Of a stretch of 64,000 nt of DNA, positions 1-52,148 are shown piece by piece. The position numbers and the translations under genes are program-made. The notes below the pieces were generated by a model. It was not told the origin of the DNA, searched no databases, and saw nothing but the letters and a program-made list of their open reading frames with translations. The stretch is from Candidatus Nomurabacteria bacterium. Its GTDB lineage: Bacteria > Patescibacteriota > Minisyncoccia > Phycocordibacterales > UBA9973. Numbering within the stretch: position 1 is the stretch's first letter; every line of letters starts with the position of its first letter. The stretch is taken from the NCBI GenBank assembly GCA_021413905.1, contig JAIOPO010000001.1, positions 9,159 to 73,158 of the forward strand, read 5' to 3'.

Positions 1-1
1 T

Positions 2-5931: not shown

Positions 5932-7512
<1,581 letters not shown>

Positions 7513-24186: not shown

Positions 24187-26652
24187 ATGGCTAAAAAAAA
24201 TATACAACCAATTGAAGAAGAAAATCCTCGCACAGATGGTGTGATACCGATAGATGTCGTGACAGAAATGAAAGAATCTTATCTCGCTTATGCGATGTCT
24301 GTTATTACTGCGCGTGCATTGCCGGATGTCAGAGATGGTTTGAAACCAGTGCATCGCAGAATTTTATTTGCAATGAATGAAATGGGGTTGACATCTTCCG
24401 CAAGATTTCGAAAGTCAGCAGCAGTGGTGGGAGATGTGCTTGGAAAATATCATCCTCACGGAGATGTGGCTGTGTATGATTCTATGGTGGGTATGGCGCA
24501 AGAATTTTCTTATCGTTATCCTCTTATTTTAGGACAAGGAAACTTTGGTTCTATTGATGGCGATAATGCCGCAGCGATGCGTTATACGGAAGCAAAAATG
24601 TCCAAGATTTCCAATGAACTTTTGCGTGATTTAGAAAAAGAAACAATTGATTTTAGACCAAACTATGATCAGACACGCAAAGAGCCGATAGTGCTTCCTT
24701 CTGCTGTGCCTGCACTTCTTTTGAATGGTACACTCGGTATTGCTGTTGGTATGGCGACAAATATCCCTTCACACAATTTAGCGGAAGTATTGGACGCAAC
24801 TAATTATTTAATTGAAAATGAAGATGCTACTACTGAAGATTTAATGCAATTTGTAAAAGGTCCTGATTTTCCAACAGGGGGAATTGCTTATGGTAATAAA
24901 GATATGTTGCACGCTTATTCTACTGGACGTGGTGGCGTTGTTTGTCGTGGTGAAGCAGAAATAATCGAACAAAAAGGGGGAGTATATCAAATAATCATAA
25001 CTTCTATTCCTTTTAGAGTTAATAAATCAAATTTGATAATGTCTATCGCTGAACTTGTGCAAGAGAAAAAACTCGAAGGAATAAAAGGATTAAGAGACGA
25101 ATCCACAAAAGATATTCGTATCGTTATAGATTTGAAAGGTGGGGCTTATCCGGAAAAAGTTTTAAATTATATTTATAAAAATACACAATTAGAACAAAAC
25201 TTTAATTTCAATATGGTGGCTTTGGTTGATGGAGTACCACAAACACTTTCTTTGAAATCAATTCTTGTAGAATTTATTGGTCACAGAAAAGAAGTTGTAA
25301 AAAGAAGAAGTTTGTATGATTTACGTAAAGCCGAAGAAAGAGAACATATACTTCTAGGTTTGAAAAAAGCATTGGATTTTATTGATAAGGTTATCAAAAC
25401 TATTCGCGCATCCAAAGATGGCGCAACAGCAAAACTCGCTTTGATGAAAGAATTTAAGTTTTCTGATTTACAAGCGCAGGCTATTCTAGATATGAAATTA
25501 CAGAAATTAGCAGGTCTTGAAAGAAAACTCATTGAAGAAGAATTGAAAGAGAAACAAGCTTTTATTAAAGCAATAAAAGAATTGCTCGCAAGTCCAAAGA
25601 AAATGTTGAAAGTTATTGCTGATGAATTAAAGGAAATTCGTGAAAAATACGCAGATGAAAGAAGAACAAAAATTATCAAAGCGGGTAAAAAAGAAATATC
25701 CGATGAAGATTTGATTCCAGACAAAGAAACTATGCTCGTTTTTACTGCTGGTGGATATGTAAAACGCACAGACCCTGCTGAATATCGTTCTCAGAAACGC
25801 GGTGGTGTAGGTGTTGTTGACCTTGAAACAAAAGAAGAAGATTTTGTAACTATGCTTGTTTCTGGTTCTACACACAATGATTTATTATTCTTTACTAATT
25901 TAGGTAAAGCGTATCAAATAAAAATGTATGATATTCCAGAAGGACGCAGAGCGACAAAAGGTAAATCAATTATGAATTTCTTGTCTCTTTCTGGTGAGGA
26001 AAAAGTTACTTCTATTTTGCCGATGCCGAAAGAATTAAAAAAGAATCCGATTTCGCTTATGCTTGTTACAAAAGACGGCACAACGAAAAAAATGTCTGGT
26101 GAAGCTTTTAAAGATGTTCGTCGTAGTGGACTTATTGCTATTCGTTTAGAAAAAGGTGACGAGCTCGCTTCTGCTTTAATTACTGAAAAAGGTGACGAGG
26201 TTATGCTTGCGACATCTGAAGGTCAGTCTATTCGTTTTAAAGAGTCTGATATACGCGAAATGGGACGCACAGCAGGTGGTGTACGTGGTATGAAGCTCGG
26301 TAAAGGGGATACTATTATAGGTGTAGATGTAATAAAGAAAGAACATAAAGATGGTTCATTTTTGATAATGTCTGCAAACGGCCTAGGTAAAAAGACAGGA
26401 TTGAAAGAATATAAAGTTCAAAATCGTGGTGGTTCTGGTATTAAGACAGCAAAAGTAACTCCAAAGACAGGCAAGCTTATCGTTGCAAAAGTTATCACAG
26501 GTCAAGAAGAAGAATTGATTGCAATGTCTAAAAAAGGTCAAGTCATCCGCACAGCTTTGAAAGATATTCCATCTCTCGGTAGACAAACACAAGGTGTCAC
26601 TATTATGCGTCTTCGCGCAGGTGACGGAATTGCTTCTGTAGTTTGTGTTTAA
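24187..26652 (+). CDS. gyrA: DNA gyrase subunit A
   Basis: [28 protein letters not shown] and [14 protein letters not shown]. Confidence 0.95.
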
Positions 26653-27217: not shown

Positions 27218-28504
27218 ATGAAAGGAAATTTTCAAAATATATTTTTAGCTATATTCATTGCCGGAGGAATTTTAGGTGTTTTAGTTTTTTCAGGAACTAT
27301 ACCTATAGGTAAAAAAAATTCTCTAGGCGGTCAAGGAACTGTTGTATTGTGGGGTACAATTAATCAACAGTTGATTTTACCAGCAGTGGATGATTTTAAT
27401 CGTGTTAATACTGATTTTGTTTTAAAATATGTTCAAAAAGATCCAGTTACTTTTGATCAGGATTTATTAGAAGCATTAGCTTCTGGCAATGGTCCAGATT
27501 TGTTTTTTTTGCCTGATAATTTAATTCATCATTATCAAAATAGAATATTAACGATACCATATACAAGCTTACCTATTGCTACATTTAAAACTTCTTTTGT
27601 TGGTGCTAGTGATGTATTTTTGAGTTCAAAAGGTATAACAGCATTGCCTTTGTATGTAGATCCTATGGTTATGTATTACAATCGTAGTATTTTAGATGCA
27701 AATAATATAGTTAATCCTCCTGCAACATGGGATGAGTTGCAAAATCTTATTCCTGTTTTAACTAAAAAAGATCAAAATAATAAAATAATAAAAAGTGCTG
27801 TGGCCTTGGGTCAATTTTCAAATATTTCACATGCAAAAGATATAATTTCAACTTTATTTATGCAAGCAGGTAATTCAATTGTTGCAGAGCAAAATGGTTT
27901 ATATTATTCAAGTTTAGCCAGTGGCCCAGTTTCTTTAGATTCTTTTTTGAAATTTTATACAGATTTTGCTAATCCTTTGAATACATCTTATTCATGGAAT
28001 AAATCTCTGCCTGTGTCTATTAATTCTTTTAGTTCAGAAGATGTTGCTTTTTATTTTGGTTATTCAAGCGAATTGCCTGTTTTGGTTAATAAAAATCCAA
28101 ATCAAAATTTTCTAGTAGCTCCTATGCCTCAATTTAAAAATTCTAAAACAAAAGTGACTTTTGGTCATGTAACAGGTGTTGCTATATCTTCTGCTTCAAA
28201 AAATTCTACAGCAGCTTTTACTGTAGCTGGTATTTTAACAAATGGCACTTTCTTTAGTAAAATTTTCGGTCAACTTTCTGTAGTACCAGCCAGAAGAGAT
28301 CTTTTGACTGTAAAACCTACCGATGCATATTTTCCGATTTTCTATTCTTCTGCTTTATTCGCTAAAAGCTGGTCAGATCCTTCTACTTTAGATACCGATA
28401 TTATTTTTCAGGGCATGATAGATAATATATTGTCAGGTAATATGGTCATATCAAATGCTTTGAGTGATGCTTCCATGAAATTAAGTCTTTTATTAGCAAA
28501 ATAA
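27218..28504 (+). CDS. extracellular solute-binding protein (ABC-type SBP family 1-like), membrane anchored
   Basis: N-terminal transmembrane helix, then VVLWGT...LFFLPDN...WDEL, as in SBP_bac_1. Confidence 0.5.
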   Translation: MKGNFQNIFLAIFIAGGILGVLVFSGTIPIGKKNSLGGQGTVVLWGTINQQLILPAVDDFNRVNTDFVLKYVQKDPVTFDQDLLEALASGNGPDLFFLPDNLIHHYQNRILTIPYTSLPIATFKTSFVGASDVFLSSKGITALPLYVDPMVMYYNRSILDANNIVNPPATWDELQNLIPVLTKKDQNNKIIKSAVALGQFSNISHAKDIISTLFMQAGNSIVAEQNGLYYSSLASGPVSLDSFLKFYTDFANPLNTSYSWNKSLPVSINSFSSEDVAFYFGYSSELPVLVNKNPNQNFLVAPMPQFKNSKTKVTFGHVTGVAISSASKNSTAAFTVAGILTNGTFFSKIFGQLSVVPARRDLLTVKPTDAYFPIFYSSALFAKSWSDPSTLDTDIIFQGMIDNILSGNMVISNALSDASMKLSLLLAK

Positions 28505-28510
28505 ATTTTA

Positions 28511-30364
28511 ATGAATAAATTTAAATCAATAATAAATATTTCAATACTTTCTGTTTTTGTTTTATTGCCTTTTGTTTCTTTTGCAGCTTTGCCAATAGCT
28601 GTCACAAAACCGCCTTCAGATATTCAAAATGATTCTGCTGTTTTAAACGGCTCCGCACAACCAGCATCAGGAGATATATTAGACAATATTGTTTATCGTT
28701 TTCAATGGGGAGAAAATAATTCTTATGGAAATGTAACTTCTTTAATCAGTCAGCCTTTGTCAGATCATTCAGGAAATGCTTTAAATTTTTCTGAAAAAAT
28801 AAGTAATTTAAAAAATAATACAACTTACCATTATCGTGTTTTGATAAAATATATTCCAACTGGTATGACAGGAGTCGTGTCTTATTCTCAAATGAGTTCT
28901 GTTTTTGGTAATGATCAAACTTTTAAAACAGGGAATAATTCTTCTTCACAGATAAATTTAACAGCAAGTCCGGCTTCCAATATTGTAACTTTGAATGTTT
29001 ACAATTTGTCTTCTGGTAAATCTTATCGTATTGCTATTTCAGACGGTAAAACTACAAGAGATGCTATTGTAAAAGCAAATCAAAATGGTTCTTTTCAGTA
29101 TGTTTTTGATAAGTTGACTCCAAGTCAAAATTATAATGTTTTTCTCAGTGAAACAAATGATAATGGCGGAGATGTTTTAAAAACAATCAATTTCACAACT
29201 TCAACCGATAATTCTTTTTCAGAAGCAGGAACAACTTTAGTGAAAGATATTACCGCTGTATCTGCTAGTGTTTCTTCTGTTGGTCTTACTTCAGATGCTT
29301 CTTATGTTTATTCTTTGCGTTCAGATTTGGGTCGTTATGATGTTACAAAAAATGCAGATAGTGATGGAAATATAAATGCATCTTTTGATAAATTAAGTCC
29401 AAATACAAATTATACTTTATACTTGAGTAAATCTACTGATATTGCTCATTATATAGATAAAAAAGATTTTCGAACATTATCACCAATATTTTCAATAATT
29501 AGTTTTAATTCAAATTCTGTTACTTTTAAAGCTTCTGGTCTGAATGCTGTTTATCAATATATGTTTTCTGTGGTGACAGAAGTTGGTACTTTAAACAAAC
29601 AAGTTTCTCCAGAAAAAACAGGTGATGCGACAGTAACTTTTACTTTGAAACAATGCGACAAAGAACCTTGTTATAAATATAAAGCTTCTGTAAATAGGTA
29701 TATTTCAGGTGATAATACTTCTGAAAGTATAAACTTACCAGATTTATATTTTTCTTTGCCTGTTGGAGGATTCTCTGTATTAAATGTGTCTTCTAATTCA
29801 GCTACTATTGGAGGTTCTGGTCTAACTCCAAATGCAAAATATAAATTTTCATTAGTCGGTGTTCCTGATGTTGAAGCTACTGCTGATGCAAATGGTTTCG
29901 CTCAAGCAGTTTTTTCAAACCTTGCTCCGGATCATCGCTATAATGCTTTTGTTGCTTTGGTCGGCAATAATACAAATTATGTTTTAAATGGTGAAGTTAC
30001 AACTTTAGCAGAAAGTTCATCCGGGGAATCTTCTGTAAAATTTTCAGGATTAGTACCTTGTGGAACTGGTAGAAATGCTGATGGGTCTATACCTACTCCT
30101 TGTGATTTTAATTATTTAATAAAAATGATTAATATCGTTATCAACTTTATTTTAATAGCATTAGCTGTGCCTATTTCAGCTATTATGTTTGCTTATGCTG
30201 GTATTTTGATGATAGGCGCAAATGGGGAAGTTTCAAAAATAACTCAAGCAAAAAATATTTTTACAAATGTTGTGATAGGTCTTGTATTTATAGCTGGATC
30301 TTGGCTTATCATCCATGCGATATTGTCAATCTTGGGCTATGACGGTTCTTGGATTGGTTTTTAA
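28511..30364 (+). CDS. secreted protein with a tandem array of ~85-aa FN3/Ig-like repeats and a C-terminal two-helix pilin-like module
   Basis: Signal peptide. Repeats carry the L.P.T.Y..YL motif. The C-terminus CGTG...PCDFNYLIKMINIVINFILIALAVP...GLVFIAGSWLIIHAILSILG is homologous to the four downstream small proteins. Confidence 0.7.
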   Translation: MNKFKSIINISILSVFVLLPFVSFAALPIAVTKPPSDIQNDSAVLNGSAQPASGDILDNIVYRFQWGENNSYGNVTSLISQPLSDHSGNALNFSEKISNLKNNTTYHYRVLIKYIPTGMTGVVSYSQMSSVFGNDQTFKTGNNSSSQINLTASPASNIVTLNVYNLSSGKSYRIAISDGKTTRDAIVKANQNGSFQYVFDKLTPSQNYNVFLSETNDNGGDVLKTINFTTSTDNSFSEAGTTLVKDITAVSASVSSVGLTSDASYVYSLRSDLGRYDVTKNADSDGNINASFDKLSPNTNYTLYLSKSTDIAHYIDKKDFRTLSPIFSIISFNSNSVTFKASGLNAVYQYMFSVVTEVGTLNKQVSPEKTGDATVTFTLKQCDKEPCYKYKASVNRYISGDNTSESINLPDLYFSLPVGGFSVLNVSSNSATIGGSGLTPNAKYKFSLVGVPDVEATADANGFAQAVFSNLAPDHRYNAFVALVGNNTNYVLNGEVTTLAESSSGESSVKFSGLVPCGTGRNADGSIPTPCDFNYLIKMINIVINFILIALAVPISAIMFAYAGILMIGANGEVSKITQAKNIFTNVVIGLVFIAGSWLIIHAILSILGYDGSWIGF

Positions 30365-30383
30365 AATGTTATATAATATAAAT

Positions 30384-30818
30384 ATGAATTCAAAAATAAA
30401 AAATCTCGTTCAAAATTTAGCAATTGGTTTGTTTATATTTACTGTGCTCCTTTTGCCTGTTTTGTCTTTTGCACAAAATGGTACTAATCCGACAGGTAAT
30501 GGTTCTGACCAAAATGGAACTAATCCAGTAGGTCAAAATGGGACTAATTCTGGAGATGGCAAAATAGTGAATCCTATAAAAACAGATAATATTGCTGATT
30601 TTATAAAAACAATATTAGAAGGAGTTTTAAGAATAGGCATGCCTATAATAGCTTTGGCTATTATTTATTGTGGTTTTCTTTTTGTTCAAGCTCGTGGCAA
30701 TCCAGAGGCCATCACCAAAGCCCGCGAGTCTCTTATTTATACACTTATCGGAGCAGCGATACTGTTAGGGTCGTGGACTATCGCACAACTTATTACTGAA
30801 ACTGTTAAAAGTTTGTAA
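30384..30818 (+). CDS. pilin-like two-helix membrane protein, paralog 1 (signal peptide plus G/N/T-rich linker)
   Basis: Shares a module with the neighbouring genes: hydrophobic helix, polar loop, hydrophobic helix. Confidence 0.6.
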   Translation: MNSKIKNLVQNLAIGLFIFTVLLLPVLSFAQNGTNPTGNGSDQNGTNPVGQNGTNSGDGKIVNPIKTDNIADFIKTILEGVLRIGMPIIALAIIYCGFLFVQARGNPEAITKARESLIYTLIGAAILLGSWTIAQLITETVKSL

Positions 30819-30824
30819 AATATT

Positions 30825-31124
30825 ATGGGAAGTATATGTAGTTTAGTTAATCCAAAAATAGGTGATTTGTTTAATTATGGTACTTGTATTATTACAAAAT
30901 CCGTAGTACCTTTGATTTTTGCTTTAGCCTTTGTTGTGTTTATTTGGGGTGTTGTTCAATTTATTATGAATAGCGACCAAGAAGCTAAAAAAGAACAAGG
31001 TAAACAATTCATGGTTTGGGGTATTATTGCTCTAACTGTTATGTTTTCGGTTTGGGGTTTGGTTAGTATATTGAATAATACTTTCGGTATAAAAACAGTT
31101 ATTCCACAGTTACAGACTCAATAA
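30825..31124 (+). CDS. pilin-like two-helix membrane protein, paralog 2
   Basis: C...C pair, then VPLIFALAFVVFIWGVVQFIMNSDQEAKKEQGKQFMVWGIIALTVMFSVWGLVSILNNTFG. Confidence 0.65.
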   Translation: MGSICSLVNPKIGDLFNYGTCIITKSVVPLIFALAFVVFIWGVVQFIMNSDQEAKKEQGKQFMVWGIIALTVMFSVWGLVSILNNTFGIKTVIPQLQTQ

Positions 31125-31231
31125 TGTTTGTATTTATAGGGTATATGATATAATTAATGTACCTATAATTTAGGATTATTATTAATTGGTCGTTTTGTTT
31201 ATTAATTATTATTAAGTTTTTATAAAAAAAT

Positions 31232-31636
31232 ATGAAGAATAAAATTCTTGGTTTTGCTGGTTTAGGTTTAGTCGTTTCACCAATGTTTGCTTTTGCGCAA
31301 ACTACAAATTGTAATGCAGTTGCTCTTGGTCAATTGGGTACATTAGATGCTCTTTTGTGTAAGATTGGATCATTATTAAATTCAATTGTTCCTGTTCTTA
31401 TTGCATTAGGTGTTGTTTACTTTATCTGGGGAGTTGTATCTTATGTTATATCTGATGACGAAGAAGCTAAAAAAGCAGGTAAAGACAGAATGATCTATGG
31501 TATCATCGGTCTTGCTGTTATCGTCTCTGTTTGGGGATTGGTAAGTATTTTGAAGAATACTTTTGGTTTAGGTGGTTCTAATACAAATACTGTACAAGTT
31601 CCTTGTATTCCTCTTCCAGGAAATACTAGTTGTTAA
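31232..31636 (+). CDS. pilin-like two-helix membrane protein, paralog 3 (cleavable signal peptide)
   Basis: Signal peptide ...AFAQ, a C...C pair, then VPVLIALGVVYFIWGVVSYVISDDEEAKKAGKDRMIYGIIGLAVIVSVWGLVSILKNTFG. Confidence 0.65.
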   Translation: MKNKILGFAGLGLVVSPMFAFAQTTNCNAVALGQLGTLDALLCKIGSLLNSIVPVLIALGVVYFIWGVVSYVISDDEEAKKAGKDRMIYGIIGLAVIVSVWGLVSILKNTFGLGGSNTNTVQVPCIPLPGNTSC

Positions 31637-31639
31637 TTT

Positions 31640-31975
31640 ATGAATTTATTTCTTGTAAATACAGCTTATGCAAGTGATAATTTGGGTAAGTTTATAGGGA
31701 ATGTAAATAAACAGATTATTAATCCTTTGATTGTATTGTTGTTTGCTTTAGCTTTAGTTTATTTTCTTTATGGAGTGTTTGAATTTTTATCAAATGCTGA
31801 AAATGAAGAAAGTAAAACAAAAGGTAAAATGCATATGATATATGGTCTTATTGGTTTTACTATTATGATGGGAGTTTGGTCTATATTGGCAATGCTTCAA
31901 AACACTTTCAATATTCCAAAATCTCAAATAGATCCAGAAAAGGGCACTGTAAATCTGCCAAGTTACAATCCATAA
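31640..31975 (+). CDS. pilin-like two-helix membrane protein, paralog 4
   Basis: NPLIVLLFALALVYFLYGVFEFLSNAENEESKTKGKMHMIYGLIGFTIMMGVWSILAMLQNTF. Confidence 0.6.
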   Translation: MNLFLVNTAYASDNLGKFIGNVNKQIINPLIVLLFALALVYFLYGVFEFLSNAENEESKTKGKMHMIYGLIGFTIMMGVWSILAMLQNTFNIPKSQIDPEKGTVNLPSYNP

Positions 31976-31992
31976 AAATATTTTAAGAAATA

Positions 31993-32030
31993 AAAAAAAG
32001 CGACCTTACGGGGTCGCTTTTGTGTTTTTC
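31993..32030. terminator. bidirectional rho-independent terminator
   Basis: aaaaaaaagcgacc-ttacgg-ggtcgcttttgtgttttt. Confidence 0.65.
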
Positions 32031-32040: not shown

Positions 32041-32529
32041 TCAATCTGGAGGATTTCCTGTGCCCCAGGAAAATATTATTCTTTCCGTATTGTACGGATA
32101 GATTTTGTATTTTCCTGGAGGCATTTGTGACCACTCCATTTGATTTTGGTGTGGTTTGCCATCACAGATGAATTCAATAGATGAATCAGCTTCGTATACA
32201 TATACGGCGCTTAATCCACCTTGGATTCTTGTCCATGATATAGCCGGATCAAGGTACACTTCCAAAGGTTTATCTTTAGTCGCAATACCCTTACCAGATT
32301 TAATTTGAGCTTGTTCAGATTGAGTTTGAGCTTGCTCAACAGCAATTTCTGTATTTTTTGATTCCTCTAATTTTTTTTCCAATTTTGGAATCCATAATTG
32401 TTGAATCAAAAGTATTAAAATAACAGAAATAGCAAAACGAATAAAATCCGTTTTGTTTTTTGAATTCGGCATAAGCCCTTCGAGCTCTTCTGACTTTTTT
32501 GCCGACTCTTTTGGCGCTACATTTTCCAT
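32041..32529 (-). CDS. hypothetical membrane-anchored protein
   Basis: ORF with a transmembrane helix near residue 30. Confidence 0.4.
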   Translation of the reverse strand: MENVAPKESAKKSEELEGLMPNSKNKTDFIRFAISVILILLIQQLWIPKLEKKLEESKNTEIAVEQAQTQSEQAQIKSGKGIATKDKPLEVYLDPAISWTRIQGGLSAVYVYEADSSIEFICDGKPHQNQMEWSQMPPGKYKIYPYNTERIIFSWGTGNPPD

Positions 32530-32532
32530 TTT

Positions 32533-33609
32533 TTAACTGTTGTTGTTTAAAACATTGAAAGCATTTCCTCCAGAAACAATGTTCTTTTTAGCAATTCCCA
32601 ACATCACATCAGCATCATCACTTGCCTTATCCGGAGAAACTCCTTTTGCAATAAGTTCCTCCATGATCTTGATTTTCGCATCTTGTCGTTTTTGTTTGGC
32701 AATGATTTCTTTTTTCATTACCTCTTCTGCTTCAAGTGCTTCAGTCACCTGTGTACTAAAATCAACACTTGTTAATTTGAAAGTGCGAACATCCAAATTA
32801 TAGAGTATTTCAGTCGCAGATCTTTCAAAAAGAAAATCTTCTAACTGCAACATTGTTTCAATCCTGGATTTGTTTTTTAGGTAAAATTCCAGAATGTTTA
32901 AGTTGCTATTATCAGACTTGAGTGGAATCTCCCAGAGATATGCTTCTAAGTGATCAATTTGTTTTACCAATTTTTGATCTGAAATTTTAGCATTTCTTAA
33001 CCTTTCCAGATAATCCAGAAATGATTGAGAGGGATTATTATTGAAATCATTAGGATCATTTTCAATAACATAGTAGTGAGGTGGACGCTCCATTCTAAGA
33101 ACACAATTAATCATTTGACCAATGATTTCTTTGTTTTGTCTGAAATCTTCGCCTTTCTCTTCTGATCCAATAATACCGATACTGTCCTCAATACTGTCCA
33201 GCATACCTTTTTTGATTGTTTCTGGTTCAATCTCCGGTATTTTTCTTAAATTATTAAAATCATACCTGTATTGAATTGAACCTTCCAATGTTATTTGAAG
33301 GTTGTCTATAGAAAAAATCTTTATTGGGTCAGGTTTTTTGAATTGAAGAGTTTTCAATTCTTGCTTGATTAATAAAAATTTTTCTAAGAAGGGCAACTTG
33401 AATTGGTATCCTTCACGAACAGACCTCTCTAGTCTCTTACCAAGACGTATTACGTTTCCGTAATGAGCTACTGGTATCTGCACCAATGAACTGTTCAATA
33501 GTGCAATCAATGCAATTACCAATAAAATCCAGGTTGTTGCATTTAAAATCCAAATTAAGAACTCTATCATTTTTTTTAAATTAATTGTCCATCTAAATCC
33601 CGTATCCAT
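32533..33609 (-). CDS. SPFH/band-7 domain membrane protein
   Basis: N-terminal transmembrane helix, then VAHYGNVIRLGKR...FSIDNLQITLEGSIQYRY, as in the SPFH pattern. Confidence 0.5.
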   Translation of the reverse strand: MDTGFRWTINLKKMIEFLIWILNATTWILLVIALIALLNSSLVQIPVAHYGNVIRLGKRLERSVREGYQFKLPFLEKFLLIKQELKTLQFKKPDPIKIFSIDNLQITLEGSIQYRYDFNNLRKIPEIEPETIKKGMLDSIEDSIGIIGSEEKGEDFRQNKEIIGQMINCVLRMERPPHYYVIENDPNDFNNNPSQSFLDYLERLRNAKISDQKLVKQIDHLEAYLWEIPLKSDNSNLNILEFYLKNKSRIETMLQLEDFLFERSATEILYNLDVRTFKLTSVDFSTQVTEALEAEEVMKKEIIAKQKRQDAKIKIMEELIAKGVSPDKASDDADVMLGIAKKNIVSGGNAFNVLNNNS

Positions 33610-33747: not shown

Positions 33748-34551
33748 TTAATGATGTTTTAAAGGAGTATTGTGGAATTTATCTTCGTAAAAGAATTTTC
33801 TGATCAGTATTATTAATACTATTATTAATACAATCAAAAGCAACCATTGCAAGAAACTAGAAGGCAAGAATCCACAAGCAGAACCAGATGTTCCAGTTAG
33901 GGAAGATAGTACGTTTGCAGAAAGAGTATTTCCTAAATCAGAAGCACTTTTTGTTGTTGTAGTGTTTGTCTTTTTTGTTGCAGTTGTTGTCGGATTTTTC
34001 TTTACAGTAGAATTTGAAACGTTAGAATTGTTTGTATTTGTTGTTGTGCCTGTGATTGTCGAAGATTTGACAGTAAAGTAAACACCATTTGAAGTACCTC
34101 CTCCGGGCATCGGACTAAATACAGAAATAACATATTTACCAGGAGTCATAACATCTGCAGAATTTAATATCATTGTAAGTTTTCCAGAATTTACATAACT
34201 TGTAGATCTGTAAGAATTATTAAATTCAGCTATTGAATTTGGTACAAAGTTAGCACCAGTTAAAACAACAGCCATATTTCCTGAAATATCACTAACTTCG
34301 TTTGGACTAACAGAATATAATACAGGAGCTGGGTTTGCTGTTATAACATTGTTATTATTGTAATTGTTATAAGAATTGTTGTTATTATAAGTGTTTGTAT
34401 TAGATGAACTTATTTCACCTGAACAATTTGACTCAAAATTACTACAAGCTTTTACTGTTAATGGATATGAATTTACAGATATAACAAGCATTAAAAGCCC
34501 GAAAACTGTAAAAATATTTTTTATTAAATTTTTATTTATTTTATTTAACAT
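33748..34551 (-). CDS. secreted IPT/TIG-like domain protein with an N/T-rich linker and a C-terminal transmembrane anchor
   Basis: Signal peptide. PVLYSVSPNEVSDISGNMAVVLTGANF...GKYVISVFSP...GVYFTV is the IPT/TIG pattern. C-terminal LLLIVLIIVLIILIRKFF. Confidence 0.5.
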   Translation of the reverse strand: MLNKINKNLIKNIFTVFGLLMLVISVNSYPLTVKACSNFESNCSGEISSSNTNTYNNNNSYNNYNNNNVITANPAPVLYSVSPNEVSDISGNMAVVLTGANFVPNSIAEFNNSYRSTSYVNSGKLTMILNSADVMTPGKYVISVFSPMPGGGTSNGVYFTVKSSTITGTTTNTNNSNVSNSTVKKNPTTTATKKTNTTTTKSASDLGNTLSANVLSSLTGTSGSACGFLPSSFLQWLLLIVLIIVLIILIRKFFYEDKFHNTPLKHH

Positions 34552-43757: not shown

Positions 43758-43829
43758 TCGGGAGTAGCTCAGCGGTAGAGCGATCGCCTGTTAAGCGATT
43801 GGTCGTAGGTTCGATCCCTACCTCCCGAG
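43758..43829 (+). tRNA. tRNA-Asn (anticodon GTT)
   Basis: U1:A72 pair, anticodon loop CTGTTAA, GGTTCGATCCC T-arm, discriminator G. Confidence 0.8.
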
Positions 43830-45383
43830 CAATGACTTGTACTTAGGTGAGTTTTCAGTATTAAACACTTGTCCAGCAAGTGTTTTTTGCTGTTCGTAGG
43901 AGTCATTTAGCTTTGGAATCCATTCAAGCAGATATTTGCACGCTAAATTATAATTCGGCTTTATTTCATAAGCATTTTGTGTGAAGTTCGTAAATAATTG
44001 AGAGAACAATAATCTTTTTTCGTCCACTTCTGCTTTGTTGTAAATTTGGCTTGCTTTAAAAGCGAGGTCGTGAATTATTACACGAAGTTCTTGATAGTCG
44101 TCGCTTTTATTTACAACTTTATCGAGAGTAGACTCTAAGGCAGATTCTTCAATTTTACATTCAGCTATTTTTCTTTCACAAAACTCGCGTGGCACTTCTT
44201 TGTTTATTGTCGCTTCAAAGTATTTATCTTTTTCTTTTCTGATTTTTAATAATAGCCCATTTAGTCTTTGAATTTCTGTCTCCCTTTCTTTTATCTGCTC
44301 GGCATTTTCTTCTAAAATAATACTTTCAATCCATTTAAGCACAGCTTCGTTCTTAGGGGCTATATTTAGAAAAACGGGCATTATTTGTTCTTCGACTTTA
44401 TCTTGCCTAACATAGGTCTTTTTAGGGCAATGGCGTGATTTTAAATGGTTATTACAGTGCCCATACCATTTTTCTTTTTGTAATTCCCAACTCAAAACAC
44501 CCCCGCAACCATCGCAGAAAATTTTGCTTTTAAATAGGGAATTGTGTTTAGTTGATAAGTGAGTTTTACCTCTTCTTTTTAAGATGGATTGTGCTTTTTC
44601 AAATAGGTCCTTGCTAATCAATGGTTCGTGTATGGCAGGATATATTTGGCCTTTCCATCTCATTTTTCCATAGTAGAATGGGTCCTGAAGTAATTCGTAA
44701 ATTCTGCTTTGCAAAATCTTTTTTCCATTTCTTGACCTAAGTCCAATTTTATACATTTCATCTTCTAGTCCAGTGAGTGAATAATTTCCCGTAGCGTATA
44801 GTTCAAACATTTTTTTAATATGGGGAGCTGTTTCTTCTTCAATGATATGTATTTTATGTCCTTTGTCCCCGATAGTTTTATATCCAGTGGGTGGTTTTTG
44901 TGGAAGTCCGCCTTGAGCTAATTTTTCTTTTTGTCCTTTACGAACTTCTTCGGAAAGGTTGTTTGTATAGAATCTAGCAATTGCAACTTTCATATCCCAC
45001 ACAAGATTTTCGTGGGCTCTGGTATTTTGACTAACGATAAAATTTTCTTTAACGAAATGGACCTCGTTATTTTTTTCTTCATAAACCCAATCGTTAATTA
45101 TGGATGCATCTTTTAAGTTGCGGGTTAATCGGTCAATTTTTTCTGCCAGTATTAGATTTACTTTGTTTTTCTTAATGAATTGAAGAATCTCATTAAATTT
45201 TTTCCTTGCTTGTTTTCCACTTGCCGATTCTGAAATTTTATAAACTTTTACAACATTAAAGTTATTTTTTACCGCATACTCCGTGAGAAGTTTTTCTTGA
45301 GCATCCAGCGAATACCCTGTGTCTTCTTGTTCTTTACTGGAAACTCTACAAATAATGACTGCTTTTATTGTGTTATTTTTCAT
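43818..45383 (-). CDS. large serine recombinase (phage-type serine integrase); last 4 codons overlap the tRNA-Asn 3' end
   Basis: AVIICRVSSKEQ...SLDAQ catalytic resolvase domain, a recombinase domain, and a C...C zinc-ribbon region. Confidence 0.85.
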   Translation of the reverse strand: MKNNTIKAVIICRVSSKEQEDTGYSLDAQEKLLTEYAVKNNFNVVKVYKISESASGKQARKKFNEILQFIKKNKVNLILAEKIDRLTRNLKDASIINDWVYEEKNNEVHFVKENFIVSQNTRAHENLVWDMKVAIARFYTNNLSEEVRKGQKEKLAQGGLPQKPPTGYKTIGDKGHKIHIIEEETAPHIKKMFELYATGNYSLTGLEDEMYKIGLRSRNGKKILQSRIYELLQDPFYYGKMRWKGQIYPAIHEPLISKDLFEKAQSILKRRGKTHLSTKHNSLFKSKIFCDGCGGVLSWELQKEKWYGHCNNHLKSRHCPKKTYVRQDKVEEQIMPVFLNIAPKNEAVLKWIESIILEENAEQIKERETEIQRLNGLLLKIRKEKDKYFEATINKEVPREFCERKIAECKIEESALESTLDKVVNKSDDYQELRVIIHDLAFKASQIYNKAEVDEKRLLFSQLFTNFTQNAYEIKPNYNLACKYLLEWIPKLNDSYEQQKTLAGQVFNTENSPKYKSLLGR

Positions 45384-45448
45384 ATATTTTTATTTTATTT
45401 TAATTTAATTTCTAATAATTATAACATATACCAATTCAGTTATTTTTT

Positions 45449-45652
45449 TTACCCATCGGGGACATTAGAAGATTCAATTTCTTTTTTGTTTACACGTTGG
45501 TGAATTTTAAATAACGTTAAATAATAATTAGCGACCCCGTTGGCGATTTCTCTAACTTGTTCTTCCGTGAAATTCTCAAAACCAGCACAACCTTTGTGTA
45601 GCTCAACAAATTTATTTATTTGTTCTGGTTTGAGTTCCATTAGTTTAACCAC
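45449..45652 (-). CDS. hypothetical small protein within the element
   Basis: ORF only. Confidence 0.35.
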   Translation of the reverse strand: MVKLMELKPEQINKFVELHKGCAGFENFTEEQVREIANGVANYYLTLFKIHQRVNKKEIESSNVPDG

Positions 45653-46191
45653 GAAGGTTTGTTAGCTCGCATTGCTTGCACGAAAGGCGAGTCCTCTTCT
45701 TTTAAAGAAGAATTTTCTCTTTCTTTATTTGATTTAGTTAGTTGAATTCCCGTATCCTTTTCGGTACTATCTCCCTTACTGTTTAGATACTGTTCATTTT
45801 CCTTTTGGTCATAAGAGTATTCTTTTTTGACCGTATACATTTGGATACTGTCCTTTTTAGTATTTAAAGGGTCCATTAAGAAATATATATTTGGTTGTCT
45901 TTTTTTATTACGAAGAACTAATATCAATCCAAGTTCTTCAATTATTTTTATATATTTACTAACTGTATTTCTTTTTCCAATTCCAGAGAATTTCATTATT
46001 GTTGGGTATGAAGGAAAGCAGGATTGTGTTTTACTATTAGCGTGCCTAGCTAAAGTGCAATAGATGGCTATTCCTGAAGATTTTAACTTCGGTCCGTATT
46101 TTTCTATTATTTCGTTATCAACCCAAAATCGAGTCTTCTTTAAAGAAGGTCTTATGTGTTTTGGTATGACTAAATTATTTGGCAGTTTCAT
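45640..46191 (-). CDS. replication-associated winged-HTH protein (HTH_36 / DnaD-N-like)
   Basis: GIAIYCTLARHANSKTQSCFPSYPTIMKFSGIGKRNTVSKYIKIIEELGLI. Confidence 0.5.
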   Translation of the reverse strand: MKLPNNLVIPKHIRPSLKKTRFWVDNEIIEKYGPKLKSSGIAIYCTLARHANSKTQSCFPSYPTIMKFSGIGKRNTVSKYIKIIEELGLILVLRNKKRQPNIYFLMDPLNTKKDSIQMYTVKKEYSYDQKENEQYLNSKGDSTEKDTGIQLTKSNKERENSSLKEEDSPFVQAMRANKPSWLN

Positions 46192-46226
46192 AATTTTTAT
46201 TCATATAATTTAATATAGGCGAGTCG

Positions 46227-46490
46227 TTAGTTTTTTAATCTGCTTTTAATTTCTCTGATAGCGTTCCAATAATTTTTTGGTTCAACTTGAAGTAAGCCAG
46301 CCCAAAAGTTAGTTATTGTTTTTTCCAGTTCTTTTGTTTTATTAAAAACCATTTTGACTTTCGGGTACTCTTTTGGGTCCCTGTCAAAGGCAATGATGGG
46401 GAAATTTAGAGAAACTAGACAGCTAACTAAGCACATATCACTAAGAGATACTTTTTCTTCTACATTTAGATATTTAAAATCACTATTCAT
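46227..46490 (-). CDS. hypothetical protein within the element
   Basis: ORF only. Confidence 0.35.
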   Translation of the reverse strand: MNSDFKYLNVEEKVSLSDMCLVSCLVSLNFPIIAFDRDPKEYPKVKMVFNKTKELEKTITNFWAGLLQVEPKNYWNAIREIKSRLKN

Positions 46491-46628
46491 TTAATTTAAT
46501 AAAATTATTTTTAATAAATGCCTTCCTTAGACAAAAGGAGGACTCTATATAAAGGCATATGTGGTCATACGACAAAAAATAAAAAAAGCCCTTTGAAAAT
46601 AGGCTTTTTAATAGAAAGAATTTACTTT

Positions 46629-47675
46629 CTATTGGTTTTTTAATTTCGATATTTTATTTTTACTTTGCTCCTCCTTTATTTTACGTATTTGATTAAAATC
46701 TTTAACATTAAAGAGCCACCTTCCTTTTGGCTGAACCCTTGTAAGCTTTATTTTACTTGACCAATACGCAGGTATAAGTCCTTTCTCTCTATACCGTCTT
46801 AATGTTTTATCGCTTATACCAGTGGCATCTGCTGTCTGTTGAGTAAGAAAATATTTTTCCCCGTTTACGTCTTCGATTAAATCGAGAGAATCAGTTTCAT
46901 TTGCCTTGTGTGATGTGGTCGGATAGTTATTATTCTCATTGTTTTCATAATCAAGTATAGCTAAATCATCATCATTATATCCAGAAAATACTTTTTTATT
47001 GTAGCGTATTTTTATATTTATTTCTCTCATTACCTTTTCACGTATATAATAAAAAAGTTTTTGTCCCGAATTTGATTTTTTTGCTAAATTATTAATAGTG
47101 TCCAGTAGGTCTTTTTTTGCATCTGCCGTTGTTTTTATTTTTCTATTTTTTTGTTTCCTCCCTGAATCTCTATAGCCAAGATTCCTTTGTATAAACCAAT
47201 CATTTAAACATAACTGTATTTCTGTTTTTACCAGCAATTTTAAATACTTATCAGAATATTTGGTAAATTTATTATTATCTAGATTTTCTTTTAAAGAAAG
47301 ATATTTTTTTAGTTTTTTTGTTGATGGTGAGACGCTTCCTATCCAAATTTCTGCCAAAAAGTCTAAAAGTAAATCATTGTCTTTTTTAGAAAGATTATAT
47401 TTTTTATATATTGATTTTACTATTTCGCTTGGCTGAGGTTTTTTGTTGTCCCAATTTACAGATGGGAACAATAAATTTGTTGCTATTATTCCATATTTGG
47501 AAACTTTAATTAAAATTTTTTTATTCAGCTTTTTTGCTTTTCTTTTTTCTTTAATCAAGCTCTTTAGACTCTTGATTTTTTTTAGAATAGGTCTAAGAGT
47601 TTTTTTATCAATTAAAGGCAGTCCTAAGTAAAATATTGAATCATCAAAAATAGGAAATTTTTGTTTTTTATTCAT
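46629..47675 (-). CDS. lysine-rich protein with a C-terminal excisionase-family HTH (HTH_17)
   Basis: LTQQTADATGISDKTLRRYREKGLIPAYW...GRWLFNVKDF. Confidence 0.5.
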   Translation of the reverse strand: MNKKQKFPIFDDSIFYLGLPLIDKKTLRPILKKIKSLKSLIKEKRKAKKLNKKILIKVSKYGIIATNLLFPSVNWDNKKPQPSEIVKSIYKKYNLSKKDNDLLLDFLAEIWIGSVSPSTKKLKKYLSLKENLDNNKFTKYSDKYLKLLVKTEIQLCLNDWFIQRNLGYRDSGRKQKNRKIKTTADAKKDLLDTINNLAKKSNSGQKLFYYIREKVMREINIKIRYNKKVFSGYNDDDLAILDYENNENNNYPTTSHKANETDSLDLIEDVNGEKYFLTQQTADATGISDKTLRRYREKGLIPAYWSSKIKLTRVQPKGRWLFNVKDFNQIRKIKEEQSKNKISKLKNQ

Positions 47676-47975
47676 ATAATATAATCTGGGTAACTTACAT
47701 TAGATGTGCATCTAATTGAAACACTAACGATGTATATGTGAACATTGCACTGGCACATTTTACCATTTTATTGTAGACTTAAAAAGTCAATTAAATATGG
47801 ACCTAACCCTTGAATTAACATTTAAGGCACGGTCAACAGTAATCCGCTCAGGAGCATAAAACCCATCATTGGGGTACCTGAGCGGTCGTATTGGGAAACT
47901 GATACGGATGGCGAAAGCTATCACCTAGTGGTGGGCTTTTTGCTACCAATTTTATTAGATTAAGATAAAAAATTT

Positions 47976-48650: not shown

Positions 48651-48669
48651 TAAAAAGTAAATAAGAAAT

Positions 48670-49155: not shown

Positions 49156-49193
49156 AGTTATATTATAGTTGTTTTTTAGTTTTTTTATCTTTT

Positions 49194-50129: not shown

Positions 50130-50172
50130 TATATATATTTATATAGTTTACCATTTATGTTATAATTGCTCC

Positions 50173-50361
50173 ATGAGTGATAGACAACAAACTAGTAATG
50201 GTCAATTTAAAAAGAGACGAGGCGATACTCGTATTGGGACCATTGAAAAAGAATATGGTGTTGACTTTGGGGTGCGTTCTGACACAAAGCTAGCTACTTA
50301 TCTTGAGGAAAATGGGGTCCCTTCTCTTTCTAAGGCATTAAAGAAGTTAAACGACAAATAA
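50173..50361 (+). CDS. hypothetical small protein (translationally coupled to the next gene)
   Basis: 62-aa ORF. Its stop abuts the next start. Confidence 0.35.
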   Translation: MSDRQQTSNGQFKKRRGDTRIGTIEKEYGVDFGVRSDTKLATYLEENGVPSLSKALKKLNDK

Positions 50362-50362
50362 T

Positions 50363-50896: not shown

Positions 50897-50899
50897 TTT

Positions 50900-52068: not shown

Positions 52069-52087
52069 TATTTAAATATATTTTGTC

Positions 52088-52116: not shown

Positions 52117-52148
52117 TTTGACTTTACTTTTTACATTTTTAGTGTAAA

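Follow-up and report, generated by a model that had tools for sequence, protein, structure and literature searches.

To our knowledge, a VirB2-type pilus has so far been seen on no cell of the Patescibacteria. Arrays of 2-11 VirB2-like pilin genes are widespread in this phylum, with 441 arrays described in a recent survey, which cites the trwL copies of Bartonella and the virB2 copies of Anaplasma as an analogy (Quinonero-Coronel et al., 2025; PMC12102498). According to this survey no adhesins were detected, and a term search of its text returned no mention of fused pilins. In Southlakia, a series of VirB2-like pilins encoded by an array inside a T4SS cluster is essential (Wang et al., 2023; PMC10633639), and in co-cultures of Paceibacterales, T4SS pilin genes belong to those with high expression (PMC10936435). 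The only solved filaments of CPR bacteria are the Pam pili, which are unrelated to VirB2-type pili and occur mainly in Saccharimonadia and Microgenomatia (bioRxiv 10.64898/2026.03.03.709456).

Gene layout of the locus

The 64-kb stretch of DNA analyzed here (the window) harbors five consecutive + strand genes (28511-31975) with a common two-helix hydrophobic hairpin module, and the open reading frames are as an earlier note on this DNA had described them (Table 1). Directly upstream lies the gene of a membrane-anchored solute-binding protein (SBP), an assignment of the same note that was borne out by the Pfam matches and by an N-terminal transmembrane (TM) segment (aa 4-31, hydropathy). The SBP gene and the five pilin genes share the + strand; neighboring genes are 3-19 nt apart, with the 107 nt before 31232 as the one exception. 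The terminator-like hairpin behind the last gene is shared with the convergent gene 32041-32529; in the region, 11 terminator-like sites were observed versus 2.4 expected from shuffles. The tight gaps, this terminator and the conserved order of SBP and array indicate a conserved operon. The gene order of the neighborhood (murC, S1, gyrA, methyltransferase, SBP, array, Band_7) is syntenic in the lineage.

Table 1. Features of the SBP and pilin gene block; nucleotide positions refer to the window.
Feature	Position (nt)	Residues (aa)	Strand	Evidence
SBP, membrane-anchored, SBP_bac_1/SBP_bac_8, MalE-like	27218..28504		+	Pfam PF01547 1.1e-18, PF13416 4e-17
Position-1 'long' modular pilin (big617), 617 aa	28511..30364		+	fn3 7e-9; PF18895 20.3 bits, under 26.6 cutoff
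big617 signal peptide		1-27	+	hydropathy
big617 FN3-like domain	28592-28948	28-146	+	only sub-threshold PhoD_N / Pur_ac_phosph_N matches
big617 four related repeats, beta-sandwich	28949-30043	147-511	+	repeat-repeat z 9-13.6
big617 Cys-pair loop and two-helix VirB2-like module	30044-30364	512-617	+	PF18895 20.3 bits, hhalign 98.4%
Position-2 pilin (p144), 144 aa	30384..30818, alternative start 30315		+	PF18895 42.3 bits; PF04956 28.8 bits
Position-3 pilin (p99), 99 aa	30825..31124		+	PF18895 38 bits
Intergenic spacer, 107 nt	31125..31231		+	sequence reading
Position-4 pilin (p134), 134 aa	31232..31636		+	PF18895 48.1 bits; NF045849 35.8 bits, under cutoff 40
Position-5 pilin (p111), 111 aa	31640..31975		+	PF18895 31.5 bits
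Bidirectional intrinsic-terminator-like hairpin, closes pilin block	31996..32021			11-bp stem, 5 GC pairs, T-runs on both strands

The spacer between p99 and p134 contains an extended -10-like sequence (TGATATAAT, 31146-31154) and no -35 match. Across 74 arrays of related genomes, the spacer before the penultimate pilin gene has a median length of 119 nt, whereas the other junctions measure 12-17 nt. TATAAT is present in 52 and TGnTAwAAT in 40 of these 74 spacers; these are raw counts, and the genome is AT-rich. The spacer might thus harbor a weakly indicated internal promoter from which p134 and p111 could be transcribed.

The shared module and its family

All four small proteins exceeded the curated cutoff of PF18895 (T4SS_pilin; 31.5-48.1 bits, cutoff 26.6), and p144 also that of PF04956 (TrbC/VirB2; cutoff 27.9 bits). 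In addition, all four gave coherent sub-threshold matches to NF045849 (pilin-like conjugal transfer protein), and their weak matches agree with each other, as NF045849, TraQ and pLS20_p028 are conjugation-related small 2-TM proteins. Profile searches against solved structures found no pilin. At NCBI, big617, p144 and p134 already carry the name 'pilin'. Neither a class III signal peptide motif nor LPxTG was found in the array proteins. Together with the passed PF18895 and PF04956 thresholds, this supports the assignment of the module to the conjugative (VirB2/TrbC) pilin type and not to the type IV PilA type, as had been proposed before.

Hydropathy analysis predicted two TM helices in each of the five modules and, in big617, p144 and p134, a segment at the N-terminus that resembles a signal peptide. 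Cys pairs were located just before helix 1 in big617 (C517/C531), p99 (C5/C21) and p134 (C27/C43); both distributions are those given in the earlier note. The loops of the modules contain 2-4 Lys/Arg each. To relate the modules to each other, local-alignment scores were compared with 500 shuffles. The resulting z was ~29-35 among p99, p134 and p111, 15.3 for p144-p111, 8.7 for p144-p134 and 11.5 for p144 with the C-terminal module of big617, while the latter reached only 2.5-3.6 with p99, p134 and p111. Therefore, big617 is tied to these three transitively, bridged by p144, the most TrbC/VirB2-like paralogue. A profile comparison by hhalign joined the big617 subfamily to the small-pilin subfamily (probability 98.4%, E 8.9e-15). 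The module consensus put forward earlier fits the three closely related small proteins, whereas the modules of big617 and p144 diverge from it.

The structure check proposed for the lone module gave a divided result. An AF2 model of the big617 module yielded a confident helical hairpin (pLDDT 81; helices aa 533-569 and 574-607), but the fold search with this simple hairpin was non-discriminating: ATP synthase c ranked first with an E-value of 1.2, and T-pilus VirB2 (8exh) and the Aeropyrum conjugation pilus (8dfu) took ranks 5 and 11.

The small proteins differ in their build. In p144, a signal peptide and an Asn/Gly/Thr-rich linker precede the module, and its orthologues at position 2 have precomputed TrbC matches. 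p99 is devoid of a signal peptide, and in many relatives its slot is occupied by a tandem double-module (4-TM) protein. In p134, two further Cys are located in a short tail behind the module; this protein matches the family model best and is a candidate for the major subunit. p111 lacks Cys and a clear signal peptide, and a long C-terminal extension is found at position 5 in a few relatives (L077, L081, L063).

Conservation of the array and the position-1 protein

Conservation of the block, for which a survey of related genomes had been suggested, was analyzed in 80 related species-level genomes. In 79 of them the block opens with an SBP orthologue (38-69% identity), directly followed by an array of five to seven pilin genes. 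Positional orthology was tested on 74 arrays: the best match was found at the same position for big617 (position 1) in 74/74, p144 (position 2) in 69, p99 (third from the end) in 65, p134 (second from the end) in 67 and p111 (last) in 68. The order of the array is thus fixed. Pilins at matching positions are 49-58% identical across species, compared to 23-54% between paralogues within the window. That positional orthologues are closer than paralogues argues for old subfunctionalisation and not for a recent amplification of interchangeable copies.

In line with the signal peptide, repeat array and C-terminal module of the earlier note, big617 consists of a signal peptide, a separate FN3-like domain, four repeats of ~85-94 aa and the C-terminal module. 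The z values of 9-13.6 were obtained for the repeat pairs R1-R2, R1-R4, R2-R4 and R3-R4. The full-length model was poor (pLDDT 43) with one repeat confident, so that the beta-sandwich nature of the other three rests on their relatedness to this repeat and on the fn3 match. Relatives of the big617 module are 45-62% identical and share a conserved extreme C-terminus (consensus GYDGSWIGF), while everything outside the module varies. Of the 149 best relatives, 96 combine a length of 200-743 aa with a module at the extreme C-terminus; among the long relatives, 96/97 match PF18895 and 21 match TrbC. Their N-terminal domains include fn3, Pur_ac_phosph_N, DUF5018, Big_7, TIG and Flg_new_2. Fusions of Ig/FN3-type domains to the module are common in sequence databases, and tandem VirB2-like arrays have been published (PMC12102498, PMC10633639); how unusual the locus is had therefore been overstated.

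Across genomes, the position-1 protein is short (119-168 aa) in 56 and long (201-737 aa) in 23, the long versions carrying an unrelated Ig/FN3-type insert of 70-600 aa; at syntenic loci, lengths of 136, 319, 321, 602 and 743 aa were found. Similarity to the big617 ectodomain was detectable in only 4 of the 23 long versions. This lineage-variable FN3/Ig-like outer domain is a reasonable candidate for host attachment.

In agreement with the earlier note, no VirB4/VirD4-type ATPase was present among the Pfam-scanned ORFs of the window. These ORFs included no other gene of a T4SS machinery either, and in the relatives examined the ~10 kb to each side of the array were likewise free of T4SS genes. 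In the syntenic relative GCA_000989515.1, VirB4, TrsD and PrgI/VirB3 are encoded ~290 genes away or on another contig, in a cluster that holds its own adjacent pilin gene. Judged from this one relative checked, the array hence does not have to work for that T4SS; in the published table, the virB4-adjacent pilin is the only one given for this genome. Of the array-bearing genomes in that table, 16/17 are VirB4-positive, which is indistinguishable from the phylum background of roughly 80%.

Possible functions and known systems

The explanation that we favor, with about even odds when taken as a whole, is that the pilin genes and the preceding gene of a sugar-type SBP are a chromosomal operon of an ultrasmall Candidatus Nomurabacteria genome (Paceibacteria, Patescibacteria; CPR), that its five pilin genes are anciently diverged, position-specific VirB2/TrbC-type 'T4SS pilin' (PF18895) paralogues, and that their products form a T4SS-assembled fibre or stub with a host-binding outer domain at position 1. 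The proteins are predicted to enter the membrane by the Sec route, through a signal peptide or N-tail insertion, and to adopt helical hairpins whose termini both face outward, the short Lys/Glu-rich loop being cytoplasmic. A T4SS encoded elsewhere (VirB4/TrsD/PrgI-VirB3 type, as in relatives) would extract them from the membrane and assemble a thin fibre of the conjugative type, or a short stub at the surface, in which the five paralogues would have fixed, non-redundant roles. The position-1 protein would be a modular pilin: its conserved hairpin would hold its place in the assembly or membrane, and the region between signal peptide and hairpin would be a swappable outer domain. In big617, the FN3-like domain and the four repeats would point outward and bind something on the host cell. 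Both fibre formation and adhesion are thus what we infer for the array proteins; for steric reasons, a tightly packed helical fibre may accept a subunit with an N-terminal load of ~480 aa only at a tip or at low stoichiometry.

It is unlikely, though with appreciable weight, that no fibre is formed and that the hairpin is a C-terminal two-helix anchor showing variable Ig/FN3 domains on a wall-poor monoderm, the four small paralogues and big617 being a fixed hetero-oligomeric membrane complex independent of a T4SS. The remoteness of the array from T4SS genes in the loci examined and the separate pilin of the relative's T4SS cluster are in line with this, strict positional orthology of five paralogues is what a complex of fixed stoichiometry predicts, the module including its GYDGSWIGF C-terminus is kept while the rest varies, and PamR, an FN3 protein tethered by a C-terminal TM helix, is a precedent in CPR bacteria (bioRxiv 10.64898/2026.03.03.709456). 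However, the homologues at the family level are conjugation-system pilins, Saccharibacteria encode essential members of this family within a T4SS cluster (PMC10633639), and a plain anchor needs neither five conserved paralogues nor a conserved Cys-pair loop. Moreover, conjugative pilins also wait as a membrane pool until they are assembled, so that residence in the membrane is compatible with a fibre. We would give next to no probability to an unrelated small-membrane-protein family (holins, phage membrane proteins) whose similarity to pilins is compositional, which the earlier note had named as its refutation. Short TM hairpins do draw many weak matches to unrelated membrane families, and ATP synthase subunit c was the top fold match, but the curated thresholds of two independent pilin models were passed. 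No holin or lysis family was found for the array proteins in Pfam or PHROGs, where the only PHROG matches (E 0.002, 0.009) were to a membrane protein of the moron/auxiliary-gene category and to a family of unknown function; the array lies in a housekeeping context with no phage genes nearby. A holin-like identity is thereby effectively refuted.

The SBP invites the idea of an uptake device, in which it would act with five 2-TM proteins (10 helices) in unconventional import or contact-dependent nutrient capture while the position-1 ectodomain docks to the host. This is improbable, even if only a few nucleotides separate SBP and array in the window and, by the called genes, at nine related loci, the pair is conserved in 79/80 genomes, no ABC permease or ATPase adjoining the SBP was seen in the window or in the related loci examined, and CPR bacteria rely on host-derived metabolites (PMC12102498). 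Since the whole neighborhood is syntenic, the adjacency may reflect shared descent and not function, and in other CPR classes the family occurs next to virB4 and without an SBP. Furthermore, we know of no transporter made of VirB2-like hairpins. The copies of such arrays have been suggested to be variants of the major pilin that can replace each other and serve host range or evasion (PMC12102498), as proposed for the trwL copies of Bartonella and the virB2 copies of Anaplasma. This fits the identity within the array (23-54%, published average 25%, maximum 54%), yet it is improbable here. It is disfavoured by one-to-one orthologues that keep their position in 65-74 of 74 genomes, with identity above the paralogue level, and variation sits in the position-1 ectodomain and not across the copies.

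Compared to VirB2 (T-pilus), TrbC (RP4) and TraA (F), the pilins of the window resemble them in Sec signal peptide, two-helix hairpin, short charged loop, termini that are both predicted outside and the TrbC/VirB2 Pfam threshold passed by p144, a comparison made at the level of sequence. They differ in the lack of adjacent T4SS genes, the monoderm host and the conserved Cys pair before helix 1, and big617 in its ~480 aa of extra domains between signal peptide and hairpin. We know of no such domains in VirB2, TrbC or TraA. In modular type IV pilins (Streptococcus sanguinis PilB/PilC), a bulky adhesive module is grafted C-terminally onto a pilin module and proposed to be displayed on the fibre as a minor subunit. 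The concept of a polymerisation or anchor module with a bulky module is alike, but the pilin superfamily is unrelated and the extra module of big617 is N-terminal; moreover, the window pilins lack the class III signal peptide and the single N-terminal helix that characterize type IV pilins.

The Bartonella Trw system (virB2/trwL) and the Anaplasma T4SS likewise have several diverged, tandem VirB2 copies, also in host-associated bacteria; these are viewed as variants in one role, whereas each window copy has its own orthogroup and position and one is fused to an outer domain. Pam pili are also a CPR surface system with Ig-like and FN3-like domains, including PamR with its C-terminal membrane anchor, but Pam pilins use donor-strand exchange with PapD-like chaperones (bioRxiv 10.64898/2026.03.03.709456), while the window locus has no chaperone-like gene and a helical hairpin as common module. 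The array is of the kind already described for Patescibacteria (PMC12102498; PMC10633639), and the homology call of the earlier note was right: phylum, PF18895, PF04956 for one member and five tandem same-strand genes within the published range of 2-11 all agree. In contrast to the essential array inside a T4SS cluster (PMC10633639), the window array is located away from virB4, and it differs from the published arrays in the leading SBP gene, positional orthology over about 74 genomes and the large FN3/Ig-type ectodomain of its first member. To this known kind, the locus adds a conserved SBP-led operon with fixed order, a variable position-1 insert and remote T4SS genes.

Organization of the operon and its surroundings

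Six same-strand open reading frames (ORFs) were found between positions 27218 and 31975, beginning with a membrane-anchored solute-binding protein (SBP) that is followed by five genes for proteins with a common C-terminal module. The products of these five genes are referred to as the 617-aa protein, p144, p99, p134 and p111 and occupy positions 1 to 5 of the array. The array genes are co-directional and tightly packed, with intergenic gaps of 1-19 nt in the block except for 107 nt in front of the p134 gene, and the last of them is succeeded by a strong hairpin resembling a bidirectional terminator. Directly upstream of the block lie gyrA and a small methyltransferase gene. The GC content around the locus is ~31%, the window as a whole being AT-rich, and at NCBI the locus tags K8Q94_00195 and K8Q94_00205 are found here on the 274,049-bp source contig.

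Coordinates of the array, its expression signals and other features of the window
Feature	Position	Strand	Remarks
16S rRNA gene, complete	5933-7502	+	Rfam RF00177, 1344.8 bits
uvrA	7760		next after 16S
gyrA	24187-26652	same strand	upstream of block
SBP, 428 aa	27218-28504	same strand as array	ORF
617-aa protein	28511-30364	+	ORF; position 1
p144, 144 aa	30384-30818	+	ORF; position 2
p99, 99 aa	30825-31124	+	ORF; position 3
Extended -10-like element TGATATAAT	31146-31154		sequence read; within spacer 31125-31231
p134, 134 aa	31232-31636	+	ORF; position 4
p111, 111 aa	31640-31975	+	ORF; position 5
Terminator-like hairpin	31996-32021	bidirectional	after last array gene
162-aa protein and Band_7/SPFH protein	32041-33609	-	convergent pair 3' of array
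267-aa protein	33748-34551	-	1.8 kb from array
tRNA-Asn	43758-43830
Large serine recombinase	43818-45383	-	abuts tRNA-Asn
LOOT RNA	47800-47922

Several other features of the window were recorded. The 162-aa protein of the convergent pair has no family match, and many syntenic relatives likewise have a pair of this size on the same strand behind the array, some of them with a Band_7 match. In the neighboring 267-aa protein, a signal peptide and an Asn-rich linker precede a beta-rich domain, which is followed by a Thr-rich stalk and a C-terminal transmembrane (TM) helix; the protein matched no Pfam or PHROG family and is probably another surface protein. Since uvrA and not a 23S rRNA gene comes next after the 16S rRNA gene, the rRNA genes appear to be unlinked. 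Beyond the recombinase, two HTH proteins, the LOOT RNA, a trypsin-like protease and several ORFs without a family extend to position 52850, and the region 43758-52850 looks like a mobile element integrated at a tRNA.

The shared C-terminal module

The earlier note had described five consecutive genes ending in one and the same module, and this description was borne out. By hydropathy, each of the five array proteins has two C-proximal hydrophobic helices, and signal-peptide-like N-termini were present on the 617-aa protein and, as claimed for two of the small proteins, on p144 and p134. The cysteine pairs that had been noticed right before helix 1 were located to C517/C531 of the 617-aa protein, C5/C21 of p99 and C27/C43 of p134, and the pair is nearly invariant within the position-1 subfamily. 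Similarity between the modules was assessed by Smith-Waterman scores relative to 500 composition-preserving shuffles. Close paralogy was evident among p99, p134 and p111 (z 29-35), and p144 showed similarity to both p111 (z 15.3) and p134 (z 8.7). In the case of the 617-aa protein, the C-terminus matched p144 (z 11.5) and was marginal against the other three small proteins (z 2.5-3.6), so that the large protein is tied to these three transitively. Identities between paralogues within the window range from 23 to 54%.

All four small proteins exceeded the curated gathering threshold (26.6 bits) of the T4SS_pilin family PF18895, with 48.1 bits for p134, 42.3 for p144, 38.0 for p99 and 31.5 for p111, while the 617-aa protein on its own stayed under it (20.3 bits, E 5.8e-4). 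The TrbC/VIRB2 pilin family PF04956 was matched by p144 (28.8 bits, cutoff 27.9 bits), the other four remaining below, and precomputed TrbC matches are present on position-2 orthologues. In NCBIfam, coherent sub-threshold matches to NF045849, a mycoplasma ICE pilin-like conjugal transfer protein, were obtained for all four small proteins; matches to IncI1 TraQ and to a membrane protein of pLS20 conjugation were weaker.

For the large protein a word-indexed homologue search with the full 617-aa sequence gave 4 matches, and therefore an exhaustive search with its last 140 aa was needed, in which 5,772 representative clusters reached E<=1e-3. Within the module, identity to the best relatives is 45-62%, and their common consensus reads GLVPCG...PCDF...PIAAIMFAYAGF...GYDGSWIGF. 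Among the long relatives of the 617-aa protein, 96 of 97 matched PF18895 at E<=1e-3 and 21 of 97 matched TrbC. A profile of the large-protein subfamily aligned with the small-pilin profile, starting at the signal peptide and reaching the C-terminus (98.4% probability, E 8.9e-15). Membership of the large protein in PF18895 is thus indirect, by way of its long relatives and of this profile alignment.

In an AlphaFold2 (AF2) prediction with alignment, a check that had been proposed for the module, the monomer formed a helical hairpin (pLDDT 81) with helices spanning residues 34-70 and 75-108 (query length 118 aa). Profile searches of PDB sequences with both subfamily alignments detected no pilin and gave only chance matches to GPCRs and photosystems. 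With Foldseek, no PDB match was obtained at E<=0.001; the non-significant hairpins included ATP synthase c, the T-pilus VirB2 (8exh; ranked 5th, E 3.2, TM 0.60 on target) and an archaeal conjugation pilus (8dfu; ranked 11th). The fold of a helical hairpin is so simple that it does not discriminate among structures. The full-length prediction of the 617-aa protein without alignment was left out of the fold search because of its pLDDT of 43; usable in it were only the hairpin and repeat R1 (aa 147-229; pLDDT 76-81 over aa 161-200). Curated sequence families thus support a conjugative-pilin type for the module, whereas the structure searches yielded no independent confirmation.

Two other kinds of pilin were considered and rejected. 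As the earlier note had said, the arrangement is not that of type IV PilA: none of the five N-termini contains a class III signal peptide motif, each protein has two C-proximal TM helices, and the Pfam scan gave no type IV pilin matches. A sortase-assembled Gram-positive pilin was rejected since LPxTG is absent from all five proteins.

Conservation of the array and variability of position 1

Conservation of the block was surveyed by an SBP-anchored search, in which 80 loci were obtained from species-level representative genomes (SBP identity 38-69%; source genome not among them). In 79 of the 80, the SBP gene was followed by same-strand pilin-module genes. In the window and in nine related loci that had precomputed annotation, the neighborhood was of a housekeeping kind throughout (mur ligases, S1, gyrA, methyltransferase, SBP, array, Band_7, IF-2). 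Arrays of five genes were found in 53 loci, of six in 19 and of seven in 2; shorter ones with 1-4 genes mostly stop at a contig end (L036, L045, L053, L068, L074). Across the 74 complete arrays, the best match of the 617-aa C-terminus was always position 1, that of p144 was position 2 in 69, that of p99 the third from the end in 65, that of p134 the second from the end in 67 and that of p111 the last in 68. Median identities across species (49-58%) contrast with those between the window paralogues, and together with the positional best matches this indicates five old, position-specific orthogroups rather than recent interchangeable copies. The fixed order of five members suggests distinct structural roles.

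The spacer in front of the penultimate pilin gene was long in the 74 arrays (median 119 nt) compared with the other junctions (12-17 nt). It contained TATAAT in 52 arrays and an extended -10 motif (TGnTAwAAT) in 40, and in the window an extended -10-like element was read in the same spacer. A promoter scan of the block gave 34 sites versus 28.9 expected by chance, which is no excess. In an AT-rich genome these motifs hint only weakly at a possible internal promoter, from which the last two pilin genes might be expressed separately and perhaps more strongly.

Variation was also seen at other places of the related loci. Position 3 in many relatives (10869-11444 in L002/L003; L006, L012, L017 and others) is a double-module pilin-pilin fusion of 190-275 aa with four TM helices, in contrast to the single-module 99-aa protein of the window. 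The last pilin is extended, instead of or besides the first, in L077 (12287-14557), L081 (12204-13262), L063 (12656-13351) and L069 (4758-6176). In the first three, the module is N-terminal and the extension C-terminal, with up to 756 aa in total; in L069 a last pilin of 472 aa carries the module at its C-terminus. These extensions are consistent with both termini pointing outward. In L002/L003 (7302-7928) and L004 (7463-8089), a Y1_Tnp (IS200-like) transposase gene separates gyrA from the gene upstream of the SBP; the window has no such gene at this gyrA-side position. Some syntenic Nomurabacteria-type contigs are filed as Burkholderiales bacterium, Simkania sp. or Saccharibacteria (L010, L064/L065 and several 'uncultured Candidatus Saccharibacteria'), and these unrelated names suggest binning or labelling errors in public MAG records.

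The architecture read earlier for the 617-aa protein was confirmed and refined: the signal peptide is followed by an FN3-like domain (aa 28-146, with sub-threshold PhoD_N and Pur_ac_phosph_N matches), four repeats of 85-94 aa that are related to one another (aa 147-511; z 9-13.6 in four of the six pairwise comparisons) and the C-terminal module. The Pfam fn3 match falls inside the first repeat. Position-1 lengths are bimodal: 56 genomes have a protein of 119-168 aa and 23 have one of 201-737 aa. In individual relatives the same slot holds proteins of 136, 319, 321, 602 (Big_7 and Ig-like) or 743 aa within otherwise identical neighborhoods. Of the 23 long versions, only 4 have an ectodomain detectably related to that of the window, the best being that of the relative L062 (33% identity over 385 aa).

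Databases commonly contain fusions of large ectodomains to the module: among the 149 best module relatives, 96 are 200-743 aa long and carry it at their very C-terminal end, and the N-terminal parts of long relatives match fn3, Pur_ac_phosph_N, DUF5018, Big_7, TIG, Flg_new_2 and others. We found no paper discussing ectodomain-pilin fusions, and the text of a recent survey (PMC12102498), searched for fused or additional domains, contained nothing of this kind on pilins. The concentration of sequence variability in the position-1 ectodomain suggests that this part may meet a variable partner. A conserved hairpin whose outward part varies in size, from absent up to ~600 aa of unrelated Ig/FN3-type domains, is the pattern expected of a host-specificity determinant. 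Knowledge of how ultrasmall CPR bacteria recognize and attach to hosts comes largely from a few cultivated Saccharibacteria, and we know of no adhesin yet tied to a CPR T4SS. The locus and its ~80 relatives provide a concrete candidate and a short list of proteins for a future tractable Paceibacteria co-culture.

Relation to type IV secretion, possible function and known systems

No T4SS component was detected among the Pfam-scanned ORFs of the 64-kb window, in agreement with the earlier statement that no T4SS ATPase lies nearby, and in the nine annotated related loci mentioned above, no T4SS gene occurs within ~10 kb of the array. VirB2/TrbC/TraA pilins depend on a T4SS (VirB4, VirB6, VirB3 and others) and are encoded with it, a gene arrangement that is not seen at this locus. 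For the genome of the related locus L015 (GCA_000989515.1), Table S3 of PMC12102498 lists VirB4 (#354), TrsD (#355), PrgI/VirB3 (#356) and an adjacent PF18895 pilin (#352), so that this syntenic relative has a T4SS core away from its array. Table S3 omits the syntenic five-gene SBP-linked array of this genome, and in the portion considered every PF18895 row is flagged as near virB4. Distal pilin arrays may therefore be under-counted in published virB4-centred catalogues, and as a caution from this one genome, catalogues built on virB4 neighborhoods can miss arrays elsewhere. Of 17 array-bearing genomes found in Table S1 of the same study, 16 were VirB4-positive, a fraction not different from the ~80% background, which is compatible with a link between array and T4SS without distinguishing it. 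A T4SS very probably exists elsewhere in genomes of this lineage.

From their sequences, the array proteins are predicted to be targeted by Sec and to form hairpins whose two termini are outside and whose short loop, with 2-4 Lys/Arg, is inside; the disulfide-capable cysteine pair would lie on the outer side, before helix 1. Conjugative pilins are kept in a membrane pool and subsequently extracted and polymerised by the T4SS; the termini then lie at the surface of the fibre, and the loop lines its lumen. In the same manner the small paralogues would build a thin fibre or stub, and the position-1 subunit, at low stoichiometry or at one end, would hold its N-terminal FN3/Ig array outside as the host-binding element. 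We put the chances of this arrangement at about even.

A non-filament membrane complex or anchor would fit the distance of the array from T4SS genes, the presence of a separate pilin in the T4SS of a relative and the strict positional orthology of the paralogues, and we consider it unlikely but a serious competitor. A rather more doubtful proposal is that the SBP-linked operon encodes a distinct surface apparatus and not an accessory of the VirB4 cluster, namely a short heteromeric fibre or membrane pore made of VirB2-type hairpins, in which the cassette-like, rapidly exchanged ectodomain of subunit 1 would set host specificity and the SBP would capture host-derived material. The invariant adjacency of SBP and array could likewise point to functional coupling in uptake; this adjacency is confounded by lineage-wide synteny, and the idea seems improbable to us. 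Even less credit is given to a set of interchangeable antigenic variants, which is disfavoured by the positional orthology across the 74 arrays. A holin-like protein, which the earlier note had named as a possible refutation, or a compositional artefact is effectively excluded by the curated Pfam matches and by PHROGs, where two marginal matches were obtained (E 0.002 and 0.009), one to a moron/auxiliary-gene membrane protein and one to a family of unknown function. Instead of a phage context, the neighbors are gyrA, the methyltransferase, the SBP and Band_7.

The preferred fibre or stub with a host-binding subunit has to be placed among described pili. In 3,035 Patescibacteria genomes searched with PF18895 and PF04956, VirB2-like pilins were reported in 1,948 VirB4-containing assemblies and near virB4 in 1,135, and 441 arrays, each made up of 2-11 pilin genes in tandem or with one gene in between, had an average identity of 25% and a maximum of 54%; according to the authors, no adhesins were detected (Quinonero-Coronel et al., 2025, PMC12102498). 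VirB2-like pilins were flagged as essential in cultivated Saccharibacteria (Wang et al., PMC10633639), and a 2025 review calls them the sole exception to the absence of VirB2 from monoderm T4SSs. The five tandem genes with 23-54% identity correspond to the Patescibacteria array type of at least two tandem PF18895/PF04956 genes of low identity, and the locus is consequently an instance of the class described in PMC12102498. NCBI already names the 617-, 144- and 134-aa proteins 'pilin'. The novelty that had been seen in the fivefold family and the fusion is thus weakened by the Pfam and NCBI annotation, by two recent papers and by the frequency of such fusions in databases. Pam (donor-strand-exchange) CPR pili were considered owing to the Ig/FN3 content of the locus. 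As described, they consist of Ig-like pilins with PapD/FimC-like membrane-anchored chaperones, and the array is set apart from them by operon content and module type, having no chaperone-like gene in or beside the block and a helical hairpin as module. Taken together, family, array type and 'pilin' annotation are already known, and the locus refines the existing picture without adding a new system. What it adds is a conserved, ordered, SBP-led operon remote from virB4 with a cassette-like position-1 ectodomain, which can be tested as a candidate for the recognition of hosts by Paceibacteria.
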